A stretch of 64,000 bases of DNA from Phycisphaera mikurensis (GCA_022730455.1 DZDI01000001.1:4829-68828); one strand, 5' to 3'. Positions 16,903-23,515 are shown, counted from the first letter of the stretch. The notes: generated from the letters alone by a model not told the origin. Program-made: numbers and translations.

Positions 16903-17841
16903 TTAGGTACGATGTGGCGCCGGGGGCTGCGCTGATTCATTTTTAGGACGGGTTTTCCAGCGGCGGTGAATCCACAGATATTGGCTCGGATCCTGCCTCA
17001 CAAATGCCTCAATCGCAGCCGTATAGCGCTCTGTAATATAGCGCAATTCGTCCGATTCGTTGGCCCAATCTTCCGGGTAAATGATGTCACTCACGCCGAC
17101 ATCAAATTCAAACCGATCACCCTTCCGCCGGGCATAACCAATAATGACGGGTATTTGATATTCAATCGCCAGCAGGCCGATGCTTTTATAGGTGCTTGCC
17201 AAACGACCGAAAAATGGCACAAAAAGCCCTTTCGGTCCGGCATTTTGATCGGCAATCAGCCCCAATACTCCCCCATTTTTAAGCACATCCTGTGCTGTGG
17301 TGGTCACACCGCGTTTGGATAAAATCACCTGCCCTTTCCGCTGCCGAACTCCCAATAACCACGCATCAATGTGCGGATTATCAATCGGTCGGGCCACGCT
17401 GTAAGTCTTAAACCCCAGCGTTGCCATAGTGTAGCCGAGAATTTCCCAATTACCGTAATGGCCGGTAAGCATGATCGCCCCGCGGTCACGCATGGCCAGT
17501 TCCAGCACATCACGCACGCTTGGCTCCAGATGTACATAGCGATGCCACCGCTGCAGATTTATCGTTCGAGTGGAAAACAGTACGTCGATGACCAGTTCAA
17601 AAAAATGCTCGATGGATTGCCGGGCGATGATGCGTAATTTGGCCGGCGGAATATCCGGGAAAGATCGGGTGAGATTCTCCATGGCCCGATCGCGATGCTT
17701 GCGGCTAATGAGCCACCAACCCGCGCCGGCGGCGCGAGCCGTTCTCAAATTGGCATTGACGGGGAAGAGTCCCAGCAGCATGGAAATGCTGCGGGCCAGT
17801 ACCGCTACCAGATAGTCTAAAAGGGGATGTTTCTTCTTCAT
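16903..17841 (-). CDS. lpxL: Lipid A biosynthesis (Kdo2-lipid IVA) late acyltransferase, LpxL/LpxM (HtrB/MsbB) family
   Basis: N-terminal membrane anchor, then LPLAT-type catalytic HX4E motif in LTGHYGNWEILG and the conserved central/C-terminal blocks of lauroyl/myristoyl acyltransferases. Confidence 0.6.
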   Translation of the reverse strand: MKKKHPLLDYLVAVLARSISMLLGLFPVNANLRTARAAGAGWWLISRKHRDRAMENLTRSFPDIPPAKLRIIARQSIEHFFELVIDVLFSTRTINLQRWHRYVHLEPSVRDVLELAMRDRGAIMLTGHYGNWEILGYTMATLGFKTYSVARPIDNPHIDAWLLGVRQRKGQVILSKRGVTTTAQDVLKNGGVLGLIADQNAGPKGLFVPFFGRLASTYKSIGLLAIEYQIPVIIGYARRKGDRFEFDVGVSDIIYPEDWANESDELRYITERYTAAIEAFVRQDPSQYLWIHRRWKTRPKNESAQPPAPHRT

Positions 17842-17931
17842 TCACCAAGCCAAAATATCGACTTCATATGTTATCCGGCAAGCCGTTACATGGCCATTGC
17901 CGTCGCTTGCATAAACCTTTAACTAGACCCA

Positions 17932-17969
17932 TTGACATTGGCACCCCAAATACCTAACATATACCTAAC
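17932..17969 (+). promoter_or_regulatory. sigma-70-like promoter of the imuA-imuB-dnaE2 cassette with overlapping tandem direct repeat ACCTAAC-N4-ACCTAAC (TAAC-N7-TAAC)
   Basis: TTGACA (17932-17937), 17-nt spacer, TAACAT (17955-17960); repeats ACCTAAC at 17952-17958 and 17963-17969; SD GGGAGG 17979-17984 precedes ATG 17992. Confidence 0.45.
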
Positions 17970-17991
17970 TTTTAAGTCGGGAGGCAGCCGT

Positions 17992-18777
17992 ATGAATCAC
18001 CCACTTCAATCGCTGATGGCGGACTTAAATCTGCGTCGTGCCGACGATATACACACGGAACGATCCACATCAGCCGCAACCATCCATGCGGCCGACCCCT
18101 TGGTTTGGATTGCGGGTGGCGGAGTTCATGAATTTTTCAGTCCGGATGCCCCAAGCACTCCAGATGCTTCAGTCGCACGGTCAGTCGGCTGGGACCCGCC
18201 GCTCACTTTTTTGGCGGCTCTGGCTTCCAAAACAGCCGCTGGCAGATATGTGCTGTGGGTTGGCCGCCGCTGTTGGCCCGCATGGTATTTCTGGCAGGCT
18301 GTCGGATGGGGCGATGATCATAATAATCTTTCCTGCACGGCAAAGAGTATTTATTTTGATCCGCTTTCTCAAGAGCAGTGGCTGGATGGAATCATACAAG
18401 CCGCCCGTTGTCCCGCTGTGGGTTTAATTGTGGCTTCTACCACTGATGACATCTCGTTAGCGGTGGGGCGGCGACTGCAACTTGCCGCCGAAGTGAGGCG
18501 GGCATGTATTTGTTTGGCCCGTCCGATGCGTCAATCCACTGCGCATTGCTGGGCGGTCGCCCGCTGGCATATTCGACCGCAACCGTCGGCCAGCGGCCAA
18601 CCACAGTGGAATATCCAACTGGCGACGGCGAAAACAAACGCTCGGTCAATCAATCAATGGACTGCATCATGGAATTATGAGGTGGCGCATGGAGCGGGTT
18701 ATATGCGTATATCTCCCGCAATGGGAGATCGAACTTGTGCGGCGCCAGACGCGTACAGCCCGGCGCAAGCCGGGTAA
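17992..18777 (+). CDS. imuA: ImuA-like protein (SulA/RecA-fold accessory of the ImuB-DnaE2 translesion cassette)
   Basis: Position immediately upstream of and overlapping imuB-dnaE2; size about 260 aa; start chosen at ATG 17992 with strong GGGAGG SD (listed ORF from 17932); weak sequence-level resemblance only. Confidence 0.5.
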   Translation: MNHPLQSLMADLNLRRADDIHTERSTSAATIHAADPLVWIAGGGVHEFFSPDAPSTPDASVARSVGWDPPLTFLAALASKTAAGRYVLWVGRRCWPAWYFWQAVGWGDDHNNLSCTAKSIYFDPLSQEQWLDGIIQAARCPAVGLIVASTTDDISLAVGRRLQLAAEVRRACICLARPMRQSTAHCWAVARWHIRPQPSASGQPQWNIQLATAKTNARSINQWTASWNYEVAHGAGYMRISPAMGDRTCAAPDAYSPAQAG

Positions 18778-20269
18778 ACGCCTTACCGTACAAGGGCTTC
18801 GTCTGCCGCCGCTGATTATCTCAGCGGAAGTTAGCCAATGCCAGTATGTGGCGCGTTGTTGCCCGTTGGCAGCAGCCAGCGGCGTATTACTGGCTATGAA
18901 TCTTGCGGAAGCCGCCGCCCTGTGTCCACAGGCACAAGTGCATCCCTGGCAGCCGGATGTCTACCAATCCGTCATGGCGAAACTGGCTCAATGGGCCGGT
19001 CGATTTTCTCCACGAGTGATGATCGATCCAACCCCGCATGAGGTGGATGGTGGTTTTTTATCCGCCTTGCATGGGTTGTTGATTGATGCATCGGGCACAG
19101 AACACCTGTACGGCGGCTGCCGCGTTTTGCTTGGCCGCATTCAGCAAGCCCTTCGTGAATTAGGGTTTTATTCGCGACTGGCCGCGGCACCTTCCATCGG
19201 CAGTGCATGGGCGTTGGCCCATTACGGTGCCGAGCCAATCGCTTCCATCGATGCGGCCCAACTGTCGCAATCACTGGCCCATTTACCCATTGCAGCGTTG
19301 CGGTTACCTCACGACATAATCCAGAATCTATCAGCCGTCGGTGTGGTGCAGATTCAGCATTTAATTCATATCCCGCGTGTCAGCCTGCTGGAACGTTTCG
19401 GCTCTCATCTGCTGCGACGTATGGATCAATCCCTTGGGCAGGTGTATGAGGATATAGAAGCCTTCACCATTCGTCCCGTGTTATCCGTTACGCAGCCGTT
19501 TGATGGACCGACCACTCAGCTTGAGGCGATTTTTGCTGCCACGGAACAGCTTGTGCATCAGCTTTCCGAACAATTAATTCGGCAGCAGAGGGGGGTGGAT
19601 GAACTGGAGGTGGTGCTTACACGTCCCTACCATGCACCGAACCGAAAGAAATTATCTTTTGGCTGCCACATCCATGATCCGCGTCGGATATGGGCAGTGC
19701 TTCGTCCCTGTCTGGAACGCATGCACCTTGGTGGTGGTGTTGAGGCGGTCACCTTGACCGCGGTGCGAACTGCTCTGGTCGCGCCGCAGCAGACCCAAAT
19801 AAGCCAGATGCATTCTTCATCCGATGACACCGACAATATCCGCGAATTTTTGGATGGGCTTATCAACCACTGGGGTGGGCAGCGCCTACGGATGTCGGCC
19901 CCGGAGGTATCGCATATCCCGGAATGTACCGGTCGCACAAAGCCCATCTCGAACTCTGCCCAATGTGATTTCACCCCGCCTCTGGCACCATGGCCGCCAT
20001 TGGACCGGCCATCCATTTTGCTCGACCAACCCGAGCCAACCCCATGTGTGGCGCTGCAGCCGGATTGCCCGCCGCATCGCCTCAATTGGCGGGGAGGCAA
20101 TTATGCCGTCATAAGCCGCGTTGGGCCCGAGCGTATCGTGACATATCGCACGTTGGCGCATCAGCAAACACGCGATTATTTCAAATTGCAGTTGGAGGAT
20201 GGCCGTTGGTTGTGGGTTTACCATGCCCTTGAGGATAACCGCTGGTTTGTACACGGATTATGGGGCTAA
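18677..20269 (+). CDS. imuB: ImuB, Y-family DNA polymerase-like (catalytically degenerate) protein
   Basis: N-terminus VICVYLPQWEIE.. (the UmuC/DinB palm start, catalytic Asp replaced), about 525 aa, directly followed by dnaE2. Confidence 0.7.
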   Translation: MRWRMERVICVYLPQWEIELVRRQTRTARRKPGKRLTVQGLRLPPLIISAEVSQCQYVARCCPLAAASGVLLAMNLAEAAALCPQAQVHPWQPDVYQSVMAKLAQWAGRFSPRVMIDPTPHEVDGGFLSALHGLLIDASGTEHLYGGCRVLLGRIQQALRELGFYSRLAAAPSIGSAWALAHYGAEPIASIDAAQLSQSLAHLPIAALRLPHDIIQNLSAVGVVQIQHLIHIPRVSLLERFGSHLLRRMDQSLGQVYEDIEAFTIRPVLSVTQPFDGPTTQLEAIFAATEQLVHQLSEQLIRQQRGVDELEVVLTRPYHAPNRKKLSFGCHIHDPRRIWAVLRPCLERMHLGGGVEAVTLTAVRTALVAPQQTQISQMHSSSDDTDNIREFLDGLINHWGGQRLRMSAPEVSHIPECTGRTKPISNSAQCDFTPPLAPWPPLDRPSILLDQPEPTPCVALQPDCPPHRLNWRGGNYAVISRVGPERIVTYRTLAHQQTRDYFKLQLEDGRWLWVYHALEDNRWFVHGLWG

Positions 20270-20275
20270 GCGTGT

Positions 20276-23200
20276 ATGCCGGAATTACCCATGCCGCGGT
20301 GCAAACCGCTTATTGAAACGCTCTCGGCGCGTCCGCCGACCGGTCCTTATGCGGAACTCCAGGTGTTGAGTAATTTTTCATTTTTACGCGGCGCCAGCCA
20401 TCCTGAGGAATTAATCCATCGCGCGGTGGAAGTTGGCCTGCACGCCATTGCGATCGCCGACATCAATACGCTGGCCGGCGTGGTGAGGGCTTACTGTGCA
20501 GCCCGAGAACTTCATATGCCGCTGGTGGTCGGTTCTCATCTGCAAATTCAGGCGTCCTCAGCATCGACCCGGCCGGATGCCCTGCGGACAGACGCTGAGT
20601 TGCCATTGATTTCTGTATTGGTTTACCCCACTTCACTTGCCAGTTACGCTGACTTATGCCAGTTGCTCACACGCGGAAAACGCCGCACTTCCAAAGGTAA
20701 ATGTTTTCTGACTCTCGATGATCTACTGGAATTCAGCAGCCAACTCCTGGCAATAGCCGTTCCTCCACCCATACCCGCCGAAGACTTTGTCAATGTGCTC
20801 CGCCAGCTCCGATCGGCTTTTGACAACGATCGACTTTCACTGGCGATGGCCCGTACCTACGGCCCGTACGACGCCTATCGGGAAGGTGTTATCAGACGGT
20901 GGGCCAATCAGATGCAGATACCCTTGGTGGCCGTTAATGATGTGCATTACCACTTGCCATACCGCCAGGCTCTGCAGGATGTGCTTACCTGCATCCGTCT
21001 GGGTGTGGTTCGTTCGCAGGCCGGGTTGCGTCTGGCCGCCAATGCGGAGCGATATATTAAAAAGCCATCGGAGATGCTCCGGCTTTTCGCCGATATGCCG
21101 CACGCTGTTTATCGCACGCTGGAGATCGCCGACCGGGCAGGGGCATTTTCTCTTGATCAAATAAAATATCAATATCCATCAGAGCTATGCCCTCCGGGCT
21201 GCACCATGATGAATCATTTAATTAGCCTTACCCGCCAAGGTGCGCAGCGGCGTTATCCGACCGGCGTGCCGGAAGATGTCAATCGGCGGTTGGAGCATGA
21301 ATTTGAACTCATTCATGATTTGAAGTACGCCGCCTATTTCCTCACGGTGGACGATATCGTCCGCTTTGCCCGATCACGGGGGATTTTATGCCAGGGAAGA
21401 GGGGCGGCGGCCAATTCCGCTGTGTGTTATTGTCTGGGTATTACCGCTGTGGATCCCGCCCGTATTGATCTGCTGGTGGAGCGTTTCATCAGTCGCCAGC
21501 GCAATGAACCGCCTGATATCGATATTGATTTTGAACACCAGCGGCGACAGGAAGTAATTGACTATTTGTATAAGAAGTATGGTCCAGATCGGGTTGCCCT
21601 GACGGCGGAAGTCATCACCTACCGCCGCCGCAGCGCCCTGCGAGATGTGGGTAAAGCCCTCGGGTTTTCGTTGGATACTGTCGGTCACCTCACCCGTGCC
21701 GCCGACTGGTGGGAAAAAAGAGTGATTGATCCTCAACCATTGCGTGACATCGGCCTCGATCCTGCCGACCCAGCCATGCAGGAACTCACAGCTCTGGCCA
21801 GGGAGATTCAGGGTTTTCCGCGACATCTGTCTCAGCATGTCGGCGGGTTTATCATCACCGCCGGACCATTGCATCATTGTGTTCCAATTGACAATACAGG
21901 CATGCCCGGCCGCACCATTATTGAATGGGACAAAGATGACATCGACGCCATGGGCATGTTGAAAGTGGACATTCTGGCTCTGGGTATGCTCAGCGCCATC
22001 CGTCGCGGAATTGATCTGGTCAACCAGGGATGCATCGCTGCCGGGCAGAAAGGAGATTTGCAACTTCATACCATCCCTGCCGAAGACCCGGCGGTTTACG
22101 ACATGCTGTGCCGGGCCGATTCCATTGGTATATTTCAGGTAGAGAGCCGCGCTCAAATGGCCATGCTGCCTCGCCTCAGGCCCCGCTGTTATTACGATCT
22201 GATCATTGAAGTGGCCATTGTGCGACCGGGGCCGATTGTCGGCGATATGGTGCATCCCTACCTGCGCCGACGCAATGGTGAAGAGCCTGTCGATTACCCC
22301 GACGATACCATTCGCCGGGTGCTGCAGCGCACGTTGGGAGTTCCGCTGTTTCAAGAGCAGGCCATGGCCCTGGTGATGGCCGCCGCGGGATTTACACCCG
22401 ATGAGGCGGATCAATTACGCCGCGCCATGGCCGCCTGGAAACGTCAGAAGCATTTAATAGAAGAATTACAGCAAAAAATTATATCGGGCATGGTTGTCCG
22501 CGGTTACACGCCGCAATATGCTCAGGCAGTATTCAATCAAATTCGCGGCTTTGGCGAATATGGTTTTCCTGAATCGCACGCTGCCAGTTTTGCTCTGCTG
22601 GTATATGTGTCCGCCTGGCTGAAGCATCATCACCCCGCCGCTTTTTGTGCTGCTTTGCTCAACAGTCAACCCATGGGGTTTTATCAGCCCGCCCAACTGC
22701 TACGCGATGCCGCCGCCCACCATGTCAATATACTGCCGGTGGACGTCAATCGCAGTCAATGGGAATCCACTATTGAATATTCGCACGGTTCGCTCCGGTT
22801 GGGTATGTCGATGGTGCATGGTGCATCGCAGATGGAATGTGAAACAATCGTCCAGAGTGTTCGTCGCCATGGCCCATTCCAAACTCTCTCGGCATTGTGG
22901 CGCATGACTCCCGGTATCCGCAGGGCGGCACTGCTGACATTGGCCCGTGCGGATGCCTTTAATTCCATGGGATTGAACCGCCAGACCGCTATCTGGGCTA
23001 TACAGAATATTCGCGATGCCCCCATGCCTTTATTTGCCGATTCTTCGCAACCGTCAGAGCACTGCACCTTGCCACCGTTGGCTCCCGATCAACTCGTTCT
23101 GCAGGATTACGCAGCCACGGGCTTTTCGCTTAAGGCCCATCCAATTTCATTTTTTCGGCCGGCGCTTAACCACCGTCATGTTGTCCCCATGACAGATATA

Positions 23201-23515
23201 CAGGATGAAGGTCGTTTTCCCCATGGCTCCCGTGTCACTGTCGCGGGAGTGGTATTGGTTCGGCAGCGGCCTGCCACCGCCAAGGGTATCACTTTTGTTA
23301 CTATTGAAGATGAAACGGGCGTCGCTAATCTGGTGATCAAACCAATCATCTACAAAAAATACCGCCGTGAACTGCGATTCGCACCGGCTGTTATTATCAA
23401 GGGTAAAATCGAACGTCGCGACGCAGTGGTGCATATCCTCGTTTATGCAGCGTACACTTTATCCCGTTTGGTTCCGCAGGCACAATTCATAAGCCAATCC
23501 CGTGATTTTCATTGA
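20276..23515 (+). CDS. dnaE2: Error-prone DNA polymerase III alpha-like, DnaE2 (ImuC)
   Basis: PHP domain start YAELQVLSNFSFLRGASHPEEL..GLHAIAIADINTLAGVV, Pol III alpha core motifs, 1079 aa, no tau/beta-binding C-terminal extension; genomic linkage with imuA/imuB. Confidence 0.85.
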   Translation: MPELPMPRCKPLIETLSARPPTGPYAELQVLSNFSFLRGASHPEELIHRAVEVGLHAIAIADINTLAGVVRAYCAARELHMPLVVGSHLQIQASSASTRPDALRTDAELPLISVLVYPTSLASYADLCQLLTRGKRRTSKGKCFLTLDDLLEFSSQLLAIAVPPPIPAEDFVNVLRQLRSAFDNDRLSLAMARTYGPYDAYREGVIRRWANQMQIPLVAVNDVHYHLPYRQALQDVLTCIRLGVVRSQAGLRLAANAERYIKKPSEMLRLFADMPHAVYRTLEIADRAGAFSLDQIKYQYPSELCPPGCTMMNHLISLTRQGAQRRYPTGVPEDVNRRLEHEFELIHDLKYAAYFLTVDDIVRFARSRGILCQGRGAAANSAVCYCLGITAVDPARIDLLVERFISRQRNEPPDIDIDFEHQRRQEVIDYLYKKYGPDRVALTAEVITYRRRSALRDVGKALGFSLDTVGHLTRAADWWEKRVIDPQPLRDIGLDPADPAMQELTALAREIQGFPRHLSQHVGGFIITAGPLHHCVPIDNTGMPGRTIIEWDKDDIDAMGMLKVDILALGMLSAIRRGIDLVNQGCIAAGQKGDLQLHTIPAEDPAVYDMLCRADSIGIFQVESRAQMAMLPRLRPRCYYDLIIEVAIVRPGPIVGDMVHPYLRRRNGEEPVDYPDDTIRRVLQRTLGVPLFQEQAMALVMAAAGFTPDEADQLRRAMAAWKRQKHLIEELQQKIISGMVVRGYTPQYAQAVFNQIRGFGEYGFPESHAASFALLVYVSAWLKHHHPAAFCAALLNSQPMGFYQPAQLLRDAAAHHVNILPVDVNRSQWESTIEYSHGSLRLGMSMVHGASQMECETIVQSVRRHGPFQTLSALWRMTPGIRRAALLTLARADAFNSMGLNRQTAIWAIQNIRDAPMPLFADSSQPSEHCTLPPLAPDQLVLQDYAATGFSLKAHPISFFRPALNHRHVVPMTDIQDEGRFPHGSRVTVAGVVLVRQRPATAKGITFVTIEDETGVANLVIKPIIYKKYRRELRFAPAVIIKGKIERRDAVVHILVYAAYTLSRLVPQAQFISQSRDFH

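Follow-up and report, generated by a model that had tools for sequence, protein, structure and literature searches.

In a stretch of 64,000 nucleotides from Phycisphaera mikurensis (GCA_022730455.1, DZDI01000001.1:4829-68828; hereafter the window, with positions counted from its first letter), the promoter of an imuA-imuB-dnaE2 mutagenesis cassette carries the 17-base direct repeat CCTAAC-N5-CCTAAC (CCTAACATATACCTAAC; 17953-17969, plus strand). As judged by comparative sequence analysis, this repeat is most likely the DNA-damage (SOS-type) repressor site of the Planctomycetota, previously undescribed, and it very probably serves as operator of a repressor which controls a translesion and repair regulon across the phylum. 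No description of it was found in the literature, whether under the motif strings or as an SOS box or LexA motif of the Planctomycetes; by 2021, the LexA-binding motifs on record numbered about 17 (PMC8565304), and in 2016 the SOS response was stated to be undocumented in PVC, the super-phylum of Planctomycetes, Verrucomicrobia and Chlamydiae (PMC4951493). With the repeat, the phylum would gain a concrete, testable predicted operator and a first regulon.

A sequence-only reading of the window had described the cassette, a TTGACA-17-TAACAT promoter in front of it and a direct repeat ACCTAAC ATAT ACCTAAC overlapping the -10 region, and all three are confirmed here, the cassette by the polymerase scores and gene order given below, with a weak match for ImuA. 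The -35 hexamer TTGACA occupies 17932-17937 and the -10 hexamer TAACAT 17955-17960 (both plus strand), separated by a 17-nt spacer, with the -10 lying inside the operator. In a promoter scan of 17700-18100, this was the single sigma-70-like site, with 10 of 12 consensus matches. The two ACCTAAC units are found at 17952-17958 and 17963-17969 with ATAT between them, so that the CCTAAC half-sites of the core stand 11 bp apart, and the extended operator ATA-CCTAAC-ATATA-CCTAAC-TTT (17950-17972, plus strand) follows the preference ATA...WWA of the whole family of sites. The 3' edge of the operator is 22 nt from the imuA start; the element covers the -10 and the predicted transcription start, about 24 nt before the imuA ATG. 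Within the window, TAAC-N7-TAAC occurs twice compared to 0.6 expected matches, a number reached by 15 of 100 shuffled sequences, and a relaxed search (CCNAAC-N5-CCNAAC with one mismatch; the 18-mer with three mismatches) gave no second credible site in the window. As these statistics are unremarkable, the significance of the repeat derives from its conservation.

Relatives of ImuA are few, with 15 matches in 5.8 billion proteins. The six closest imuA lineages were chosen by protein identity (100, 72, 69, 62, 56 and 44%) and not by the motif, and the identical 17-mer, placed 15 nt after TTGACA, is present in all six. In the alignment of these orthologous promoters TTGACAT is likewise invariant, while the intergenic DNA around the operators drifts (mean column identity 71%). 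The window itself belongs to the class Phycisphaerae; the acyltransferase encoded beside imuA shares a 90% cluster with a Phycisphaerae-labelled protein.

Far beyond these orthologues, a scan for the exact 17-mer in one genome per species (185,579 species, 596 Gb) yielded 72 loci, 42 of which are labelled Planctomycetota (in 35 assemblies), and one unlabelled contig shows the same context as the latter. Chance would account for about one Planctomycetota locus or fewer, as a 6-Mb genome of 50-60% GC should contain the 17-mer about 2e-4 to 7e-4 times, and several genomes even hold two or three copies. The labelled lineages comprise Phycisphaerae, Tepidisphaeraceae, Planctomycetales/Planctomycetaceae, Pirellulales and one member of the Brocadiaceae; by these labels, the lineage carrying the repeat is one that spans at least two Planctomycetota classes. 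An additional exact scan of metagenomes gave at least 120 loci, and those listed split cleanly into high-GC, planctomycete-like contexts and low-GC Bacteroidota repeats. When the high-GC sites among the matches listed were pooled (98 sites, 75 of them non-redundant), all 75 listed strong sites shared the half-site GTTAGG/CCTAAC, and their flanks displayed an A/T bias at positions -3 to -1 and +1 to +3 only. On this alignment, the operator unit is ATA-CCTAAC, occurring twice at 11-bp spacing.

The genes behind the site were identified by clustering and annotating the adjacent open reading frames; all counts refer to loci among the matches listed and include some duplicates between genomes and metagenomes. 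The most frequent members are dnaE2 operons (23 loci), imuB (17 loci, including an imuB-dnaE2 form lacking imuA), Y-family polymerases (16 loci) and imuA (15 loci), followed by an ABC-ATPase of about 500 amino acids with a GNAT-like, i.e., acetyltransferase-like C-terminus (ATPase-GNAT, 12 loci), a sigma-70-family protein of 320-400 amino acids (nine loci: L015, L017, L048, L068, L076, L085, L134, L136 and L189) and a small helix-turn-helix (HTH) protein, which was found at seven loci and only in Tepidisphaeraceae-like contigs. In the sigma-family protein, which has a long C-terminal extension, region 2 was detected and a region 4-like HTH can be recognized by eye; its recurrence in the regulon implies a damage-induced secondary sigma factor. 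Further genes behind the site encode a spore-photoproduct-lyase-like radical SAM enzyme together with a DUF523-like gene (labelled by eye, with no NCBIfam match), an HNH protein, an MrfA/Hrq1-type helicase, a umuD-like protein followed by a Y-family polymerase, and an extracytoplasmic function (ECF)-like sigma factor. recA was found behind the site once (L143); the RecA fragment encoded there is closest to Planctomycetota-labelled proteins, and its frame carries several frameshifts, which indicates a poor assembly. At six of the 16 Y-polymerase loci an 82-amino-acid protein with an ImuB-C-like RFRWxGR motif precedes the polymerase, which corresponds to the standalone ImuB-C/GeoPolY arrangement reported for Planctomycetes (PMC6511836). 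The loci L050, L162, L169, L170, L175 and L191 fit the 'GeoPolY-like' variant mutasome described in the same study (PMC6511836). Going by these annotations, the gene set is SOS-type in content and weighted to translesion synthesis, in agreement with the SOS cores of other phyla, which contain imuABC, dinB/umuDC, splB and recA (PMC4951493, PMC8565304). Altogether, the predicted regulon holds three mutasome layouts and also comprises the photoproduct-lyase-like enzyme, the helicase, the sigma factor and the ATPase/acetyltransferase. Since strong sites are exact 17-mers, damage-inducible genes could be read directly from metagenome-assembled genomes.

The position of the motif relative to the promoter varies considerably between these genes. 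Each site was oriented by its gene and the TTGACn hexamer was then located; both orientations of the motif were seen, also among the Y-polymerases alone, and at every site it overlaps or adjoins the -35/-10/+1 region. The gap between -35 and motif is 0 at recA, 4-5 nt at Y-polymerase and small HTH genes, 9 nt at six sigma promoters, 14-15 nt at imuA (forward) and the photoproduct-lyase operon (reversed), and 19-22 nt at imuB-first operons, ATPase-GNAT genes and some Y-polymerases, with a further class at 24-26 nt. Sometimes the -10 resides within the motif (TAACAT, TATGTT, TAGGnT), sometimes a separate TATAAT or TATAGT is located just before it, and in the recA promoter of L143 (1590-1625) the motif makes up the whole 17-nt spacer of TTGACT...TATAAT. 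Because the motif keeps its identity in both orientations and in six registers, always on core promoters, it is best read as a repressor operator and not as a promoter element. An RNA-level signal was considered as well and rejected, as the site is present in forward and in reverse orientation with respect to the transcript (no fold was made).

What the analysis shows is the sequence with its exact conservation, its confinement across the phylum to promoters of mutasome and repair genes, and the changing register and orientation there; repression, the damage signal, binding as a dimer and the nature of the binding protein are what we infer from these patterns. According to the proposed mechanism, a protein, probably a dimer, would occupy the two half-sites, which are spaced by one turn of the helix and face the same side of the DNA. 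Bound over the -10 and the transcription start, it would block RNA polymerase and keep imuA-imuB-dnaE2 silent, and loss of the repressor, presumably after DNA damage, would free an otherwise strong sigma-70-type promoter.

Several observations weigh against this interpretation or limit its reach. Neither the window nor the fetched loci (about 1.3 Mb) revealed a canonical lexA when searched by tblastn with E. coli LexA and RecA queries; in the latter the search yielded only a umuD-like gene (L057), genes for proteins combining an XRE-type HTH with an S24 domain (XRE-S24) and the frameshifted recA of L143. Of three Planctomycetota recA loci, only L143 has the site in its promoter, while L217 and L218, both retrieved through the L143 RecA fragment, lack it. 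The promoter of the XRE-S24 gene itself shows no repeat at up to four mismatches in any of five loci (L122, L145, L163, L221 and L223). Hence, a classical lexA/recA core is not demonstrated. Moreover, in two distant cassettes with ImuA homologues of about 27-32% identity (L219, 5965-6000; L220, 3888-3925) one TTACCCTAAC only is present, placed as the -10 in TTGAmC-17-TACCCT, so that part of the motif may have a promoter origin; neither a second motif copy nor an adjacent lexA was found at these two loci. Finally, the collection scans were exact-match only, which biases the regulon list to the strongest sites, and the taxon labels are those given by the submitters of the metagenome-assembled genomes. 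The sequence-only reading had proposed that the repeat may define the SOS-box type of its lineage or belong to a non-LexA regulator, to be checked upstream of lexA and recA. Of this proposal, a phylum-wide site of a damage-type regulon stands. By the refuting condition of that reading the outcome is mixed: one recA promoter carries the site, while the remaining two recA promoters and the five promoters of XRE-S24, the only LexA-like gene found, do not. The comparison made there with the alphaproteobacterial LexA box applies as well: the architecture is alike and the half-site different.

As to the binding protein, a factor other than canonical LexA or the XRE-S24 protein is quite plausible. 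Of the DNA-binding proteins, the sigma-family protein, whose type is not that of a repressor, and the small HTH protein have genes bearing the repeat. The predicted regulon has mutagenesis genes at its centre, and not lexA and recA.

A possible, if somewhat doubtful, alternative within the operator interpretation is that the repeat is read by a canonical winged-helix LexA of the Planctomycetota, as a GTTA direct-repeat box akin to GTTC-N7-GTTC. The box of Alphaproteobacteria and Acidobacterium is, as here, a direct 4-nt repeat with a 7-nt gap and thus an 11-bp period, and the alphaproteobacterial one is also located on promoters of imuA-imuB-dnaE2 and other damage genes, where it acts by repression. 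Read on the other strand, the site described here is GTTA-N7-GTTA (GTTAggtatatGTTA), compared to Caulobacter examples of GTTC-N7-GTTC such as GTTCttgttatGTTC (PMC12700426). Degenerate operator copies include GTTC and GTTT half-sites, the regulon content is SOS-like, and planctomycete LexA has been reported not to use the E. coli box (PMC3108266). Unlike the alphaproteobacterial box, however, the half-site GTTAGG/CCTAAC comprises six conserved bases, with A instead of C at position 4 and GTTC only in a degenerate copy; the spacer TATAT is conserved in strong sites, the phylum is another one, and autoregulation of lexA is not seen. No canonical lexA was detected beside any of about 100 sites or in the fetched DNA, and lexA promoters, normally the most reliable carriers of SOS boxes, are not among the matches. 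In Phycisphaerae, the proteins named 'LexA family' by NCBI are of the XRE-HTH type, judged by the best 120 of 767 matches in an S24-domain search; as all of these 120 were of that type, the search is uninformative on canonical LexA. The site would be a second case of a direct-repeat box and bears on the turnover of SOS boxes and their regulators. In Pseudomonas putida and Xanthomonas, a lexA2-imuA-imuB-dnaE2 cassette is controlled by LexA2 through a dedicated site separate from the main SOS box, with the regulator gene in first position. By comparison, no regulator is encoded in the cassette of the window, and the site also serves many other genes. In Verrucomicrobia, a neighbouring PVC phylum and the nearest one for which a box is defined, the SOS core also holds imuA-imuB-dnaE2 and splB, and comparative genomics identified the LexA box as the palindrome TGTTC-N4-GAACA, which is found at promoters of lexA (27), recA (25) and rarely imuA (3) (PMC4951493). 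The planctomycete site differs from it in sequence, in being a direct repeat and in its gene distribution, which is reversed.

Binding of the repeat by the XRE-S24 protein (about 220 amino acids), which would then be the planctomycete counterpart of the non-canonical LexA of Bacteroidetes and would derepress the regulon upon RecA-filament-induced self-cleavage, is rather unlikely. The Bacteroidetes protein combines a CI-like HTH with an S24 domain, is autoregulated through the palindromes CTAA-N5-TTAG and GGA-N5-TCC, and belongs to a family reported as exclusive to that phylum (PMC8565304). Its regulon is likewise centred on translesion polymerases (dinB, umuDC, imuABC-dnaE2, splB, recA), canonical LexA is not evident there either, and the CTAA half-site is common to one of its boxes and the repeat (PMC8565304). 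Likened by domains and residues, the planctomycete XRE-S24 protein resembles it in the succession of HTH and S24 domain, the cleavage site and the catalytic dyad. The family is large and unusually conserved: a search with the C-terminal domain gave 767 matches, the best 120 of which are about 220 amino acids long, 78-87% identical in this domain, composed of PF01381 and PF00717 and, where named, called 'LexA family transcriptional regulator' of Phycisphaerae or Planctomycetota. From the hinge on, the protein aligns with E. coli LexA, with the Ala-Gly cleavage site and the Ser/Lys dyad in register; the C-terminal domain matched solved LexA structures and the N-terminal domain XRE, DdrO and 434 repressors, and on the LexA model TIGR00498 it scored 44 bits at a cut-off of 111. 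Furthermore, in all five independent loci (L221, 6001-8322; L223, 6001-8799; L145, 3597-6067; L122; L163), the chromosomal surroundings of which differ, those of L221 and L223 being unrelated housekeeping neighbourhoods, its gene immediately precedes the ATPase-GNAT gene with the operator. The two genes form a conserved module, in which the XRE-S24 protein is about 80% identical across more than 120 clusters.

Unlike the Bacteroidetes palindromes at the regulator's own gene, the planctomycete repeat is direct and is missing from the XRE-S24 promoter, as mentioned above, and XRE-type dimers normally read inverted repeats. Instead, XRE-S24 promoters contain AT-rich palindromic words; L221 has GCAATAT-A-ATATTGC, which spans the -10, and L223 has TATTG-N5-CAATA. 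The same word class is positioned on the -35 in 10 of 14 ATPase-GNAT promoters compared to none of 86 other regulon promoters; in the ATPase-GNAT promoter, the palindrome TATTG-N5-CAATA covers the -35 and the direct repeat follows the -10. The palindrome, and not the repeat, therefore looks like the site of XRE-S24. The operator copies in the ATPase-GNAT promoters of L221 (GTTTGGTATGTGTTAGG) and L223 (GTTTGGTAGATGTTCGG) are degenerate and represent the only matches with up to four mismatches in their 12-kb loci; as they differ at position 3 of the half-site, this position can vary. GCAATAT-N-ATATTGC was also considered as a general box and discarded, being not enriched in the window and present in exact form only in L221 and L222, which are the same locus twice.

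Since its own promoter lacks the repeat and has a palindrome shared only with the neighbouring gene, the simplest reading is that XRE-S24 reads the palindrome and another protein the repeat. Extended to the whole response, this gives a tentative and rather doubtful scheme in which the Planctomycetota would possess a two-layer damage response rather than a single LexA circuit. In the first layer, the XRE-S24 chimera would repress itself and the adjacent ATPase/acetyltransferase-like gene via TATTG-N5-CAATA, and in the second layer a non-LexA repressor acting on CCTAAC-N5-CCTAAC would hold down all mutagenic polymerases, a sigma factor and several repair genes. The two sites occur together in the ATPase/acetyltransferase promoter alone, which would thus integrate both signals. 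If so, this would be a damage regulon governed by a novel type of master regulator, in a large phylum that has hardly been studied. The repeat coexists with a conserved chimera of XRE-HTH and LexA C-terminal domain that appears not to use it.

It is highly improbable that the repeat instead serves an alternative sigma factor, for example the sigma-70-family protein of the regulon, as a promoter element. TAACAT within the repeat does act as -10 in the imuA promoter of the window, the sigma-family gene bears the site at nine loci, alternative sigma factors are often autoregulated, and the distant imuA loci contain TTGAmC-17-TACCCTAAC in single copy. Against this stand the two orientations relative to the transcribed gene and the six distances from an ordinary TTGACn described above; besides, a good -10 is often located outside the motif (TATAAT in L143, L162 and L191; TATAGT in ATPase-GNAT promoters), and two identical half-sites 11 bp apart are unlike a -35/-10 layout. 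The spacer of L220 also has a GATCA-N4-TGATC inverted repeat.

That the repeat belongs to a mobile element or serves recombination (as a transposase, integrase or iteron-type site), moving with horizontally transferred mutasome cassettes and not being a regulatory site of the host, is hardly credible. In favour of this view, long tandem arrays made of the 11-bp unit exist in multi-copy elements of Bacteroidota and in IMG/VR contigs, and the imuB-dnaE2 variant adjoins a tRNA-Leu gene, with an integrase and an excisionase-like gene beyond it in L047. The Planctomycetota sites, however, always consist of exactly two units on core promoters of at least ten unrelated families, among them recA, sigma and helicase genes of the chromosome in different neighbourhoods; neither a partner end nor an array is present at them, and neighbour clustering gave no conserved gene beside the Bacteroidota arrays. 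The imuA-less imuB-dnaE2 pair (L047, 41-7997; L016, L020, L080 and L204) has the operator, and tRNA-Leu is always about 145 nt off; on the far side of this tRNA, L047 encodes a tyrosine integrase, an excisionase-like HTH protein and a different XRE-S24 repressor. This pair may represent a mobile or island-borne mutasome.

Arrays of the unit were noticed outside the Planctomycetota as well. In the Chitinophagaceae metagenome-assembled genome CAWFUV01 (L040-L084) and in about 30 soil metagenome loci (such as L088, L104 and L118-L121), the 17-mer is part of four to six tandem 11-bp units resembling ATATACCTAAC. A conserved flank, 'cccattcccaatactggaac..agagttata', stands in front of these arrays, about 10 copies occur in one genome, and by its appearance the array would be the terminus of an element present in many copies. 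Predicted viral contigs and contigs of Prevotella/Bacteroidales (L207, L209, L210, L211 and L215, all from IMG/VR; L157; L032 and L033) contain the 11-bp unit in long perfect arrays, in which three to five exact 17-mers follow each other at 22-bp steps. In Pedobacter, seven TAAY units in 11-bp phase, including an exact 17-mer, are located upstream of a TonB-dependent receptor of 931 amino acids (L051, 4330-4440; also L055, L078, L109, L135, L148 and L199), an arrangement kept between species. Weak S24-like tblastn matches near the Pedobacter copies proved spurious, the downstream gene being that of the TonB-dependent receptor.

The cassette behind the operator is tightly packed and co-directional (plus strand throughout), and the same gene order is found in all orthologous contigs. 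A Shine-Dalgarno sequence GGAGG (17980-17984, plus strand), the GG of which is kept in the orthologue alignment, is placed 7 nt before the imuA ATG at 17992. The first gene of the operon, the imuA-like gene (17992-18777), encodes 261 amino acids with a predicted degenerate RecA fold. It matches the NCBIfam ImuA equivalog weakly (22.3 bits, cut-off 150) and no Pfam family. An AlphaFold model, folded with its 13 homologues, was obtained with moderate confidence (predicted local distance difference test (pLDDT) 68, predicted template modelling score (pTM) 0.70), and in Foldseek the best PDB matches of this model were RecA, RadA and KaiC (probability 1.0, TM 0.45-0.51). Position and synteny fit ImuA, as imuB-dnaE2 always comes next in orthologous contigs, and the product may represent either a divergent form of ImuA or a protein of the ImuA' type. 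imuB (18677-20269) encodes a Y-family polymerase homologue devoid of the catalytic carboxylates, with the Pfam domains IMS (43.9 bits) and IMS_C (23.6 bits) each above the cut-off. Its N-terminus VICVYLPQWEIEL stands where the catalytic DMD motif would be, and Asp-Gly aligns to D103-E104 of E. coli DinB. The imuB start lies about 100 nt within the 3' end of imuA in a different frame (overlap 18677-18777), and public gene calls begin imuB later, at window position 18737, thus missing the conserved N-terminus. After a gap of 6 nt, dnaE2 (imuC; 20276-23515) follows, an error-prone Pol III alpha homologue which scored 1342.5 bits on NF004225 (cut-off 939) and contains the full set of Pfam domains, i.e., PHP, DNA_pol3_alpha, finger, HHH_6 and OB.

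Upstream of the operator, a second invariant block, CGGaTAACAT on the minus strand (plus strand ATGTTAYCCG; 17868-17877), was noticed in all imuA orthologue loci (alignment columns A27-G36). Judged by eye, it is probably the -10 (TAACAT) of a divergent lipid A acyltransferase promoter, TGGCCA-17-TAACAT, and not a third operator unit; its minus-strand TAACAT is positioned 26 nt upstream of the acyltransferase ATG at 17841. The putative -10 of the divergent acyltransferase gene is thus the same unusual TAACAT hexamer as in the imuA promoter.

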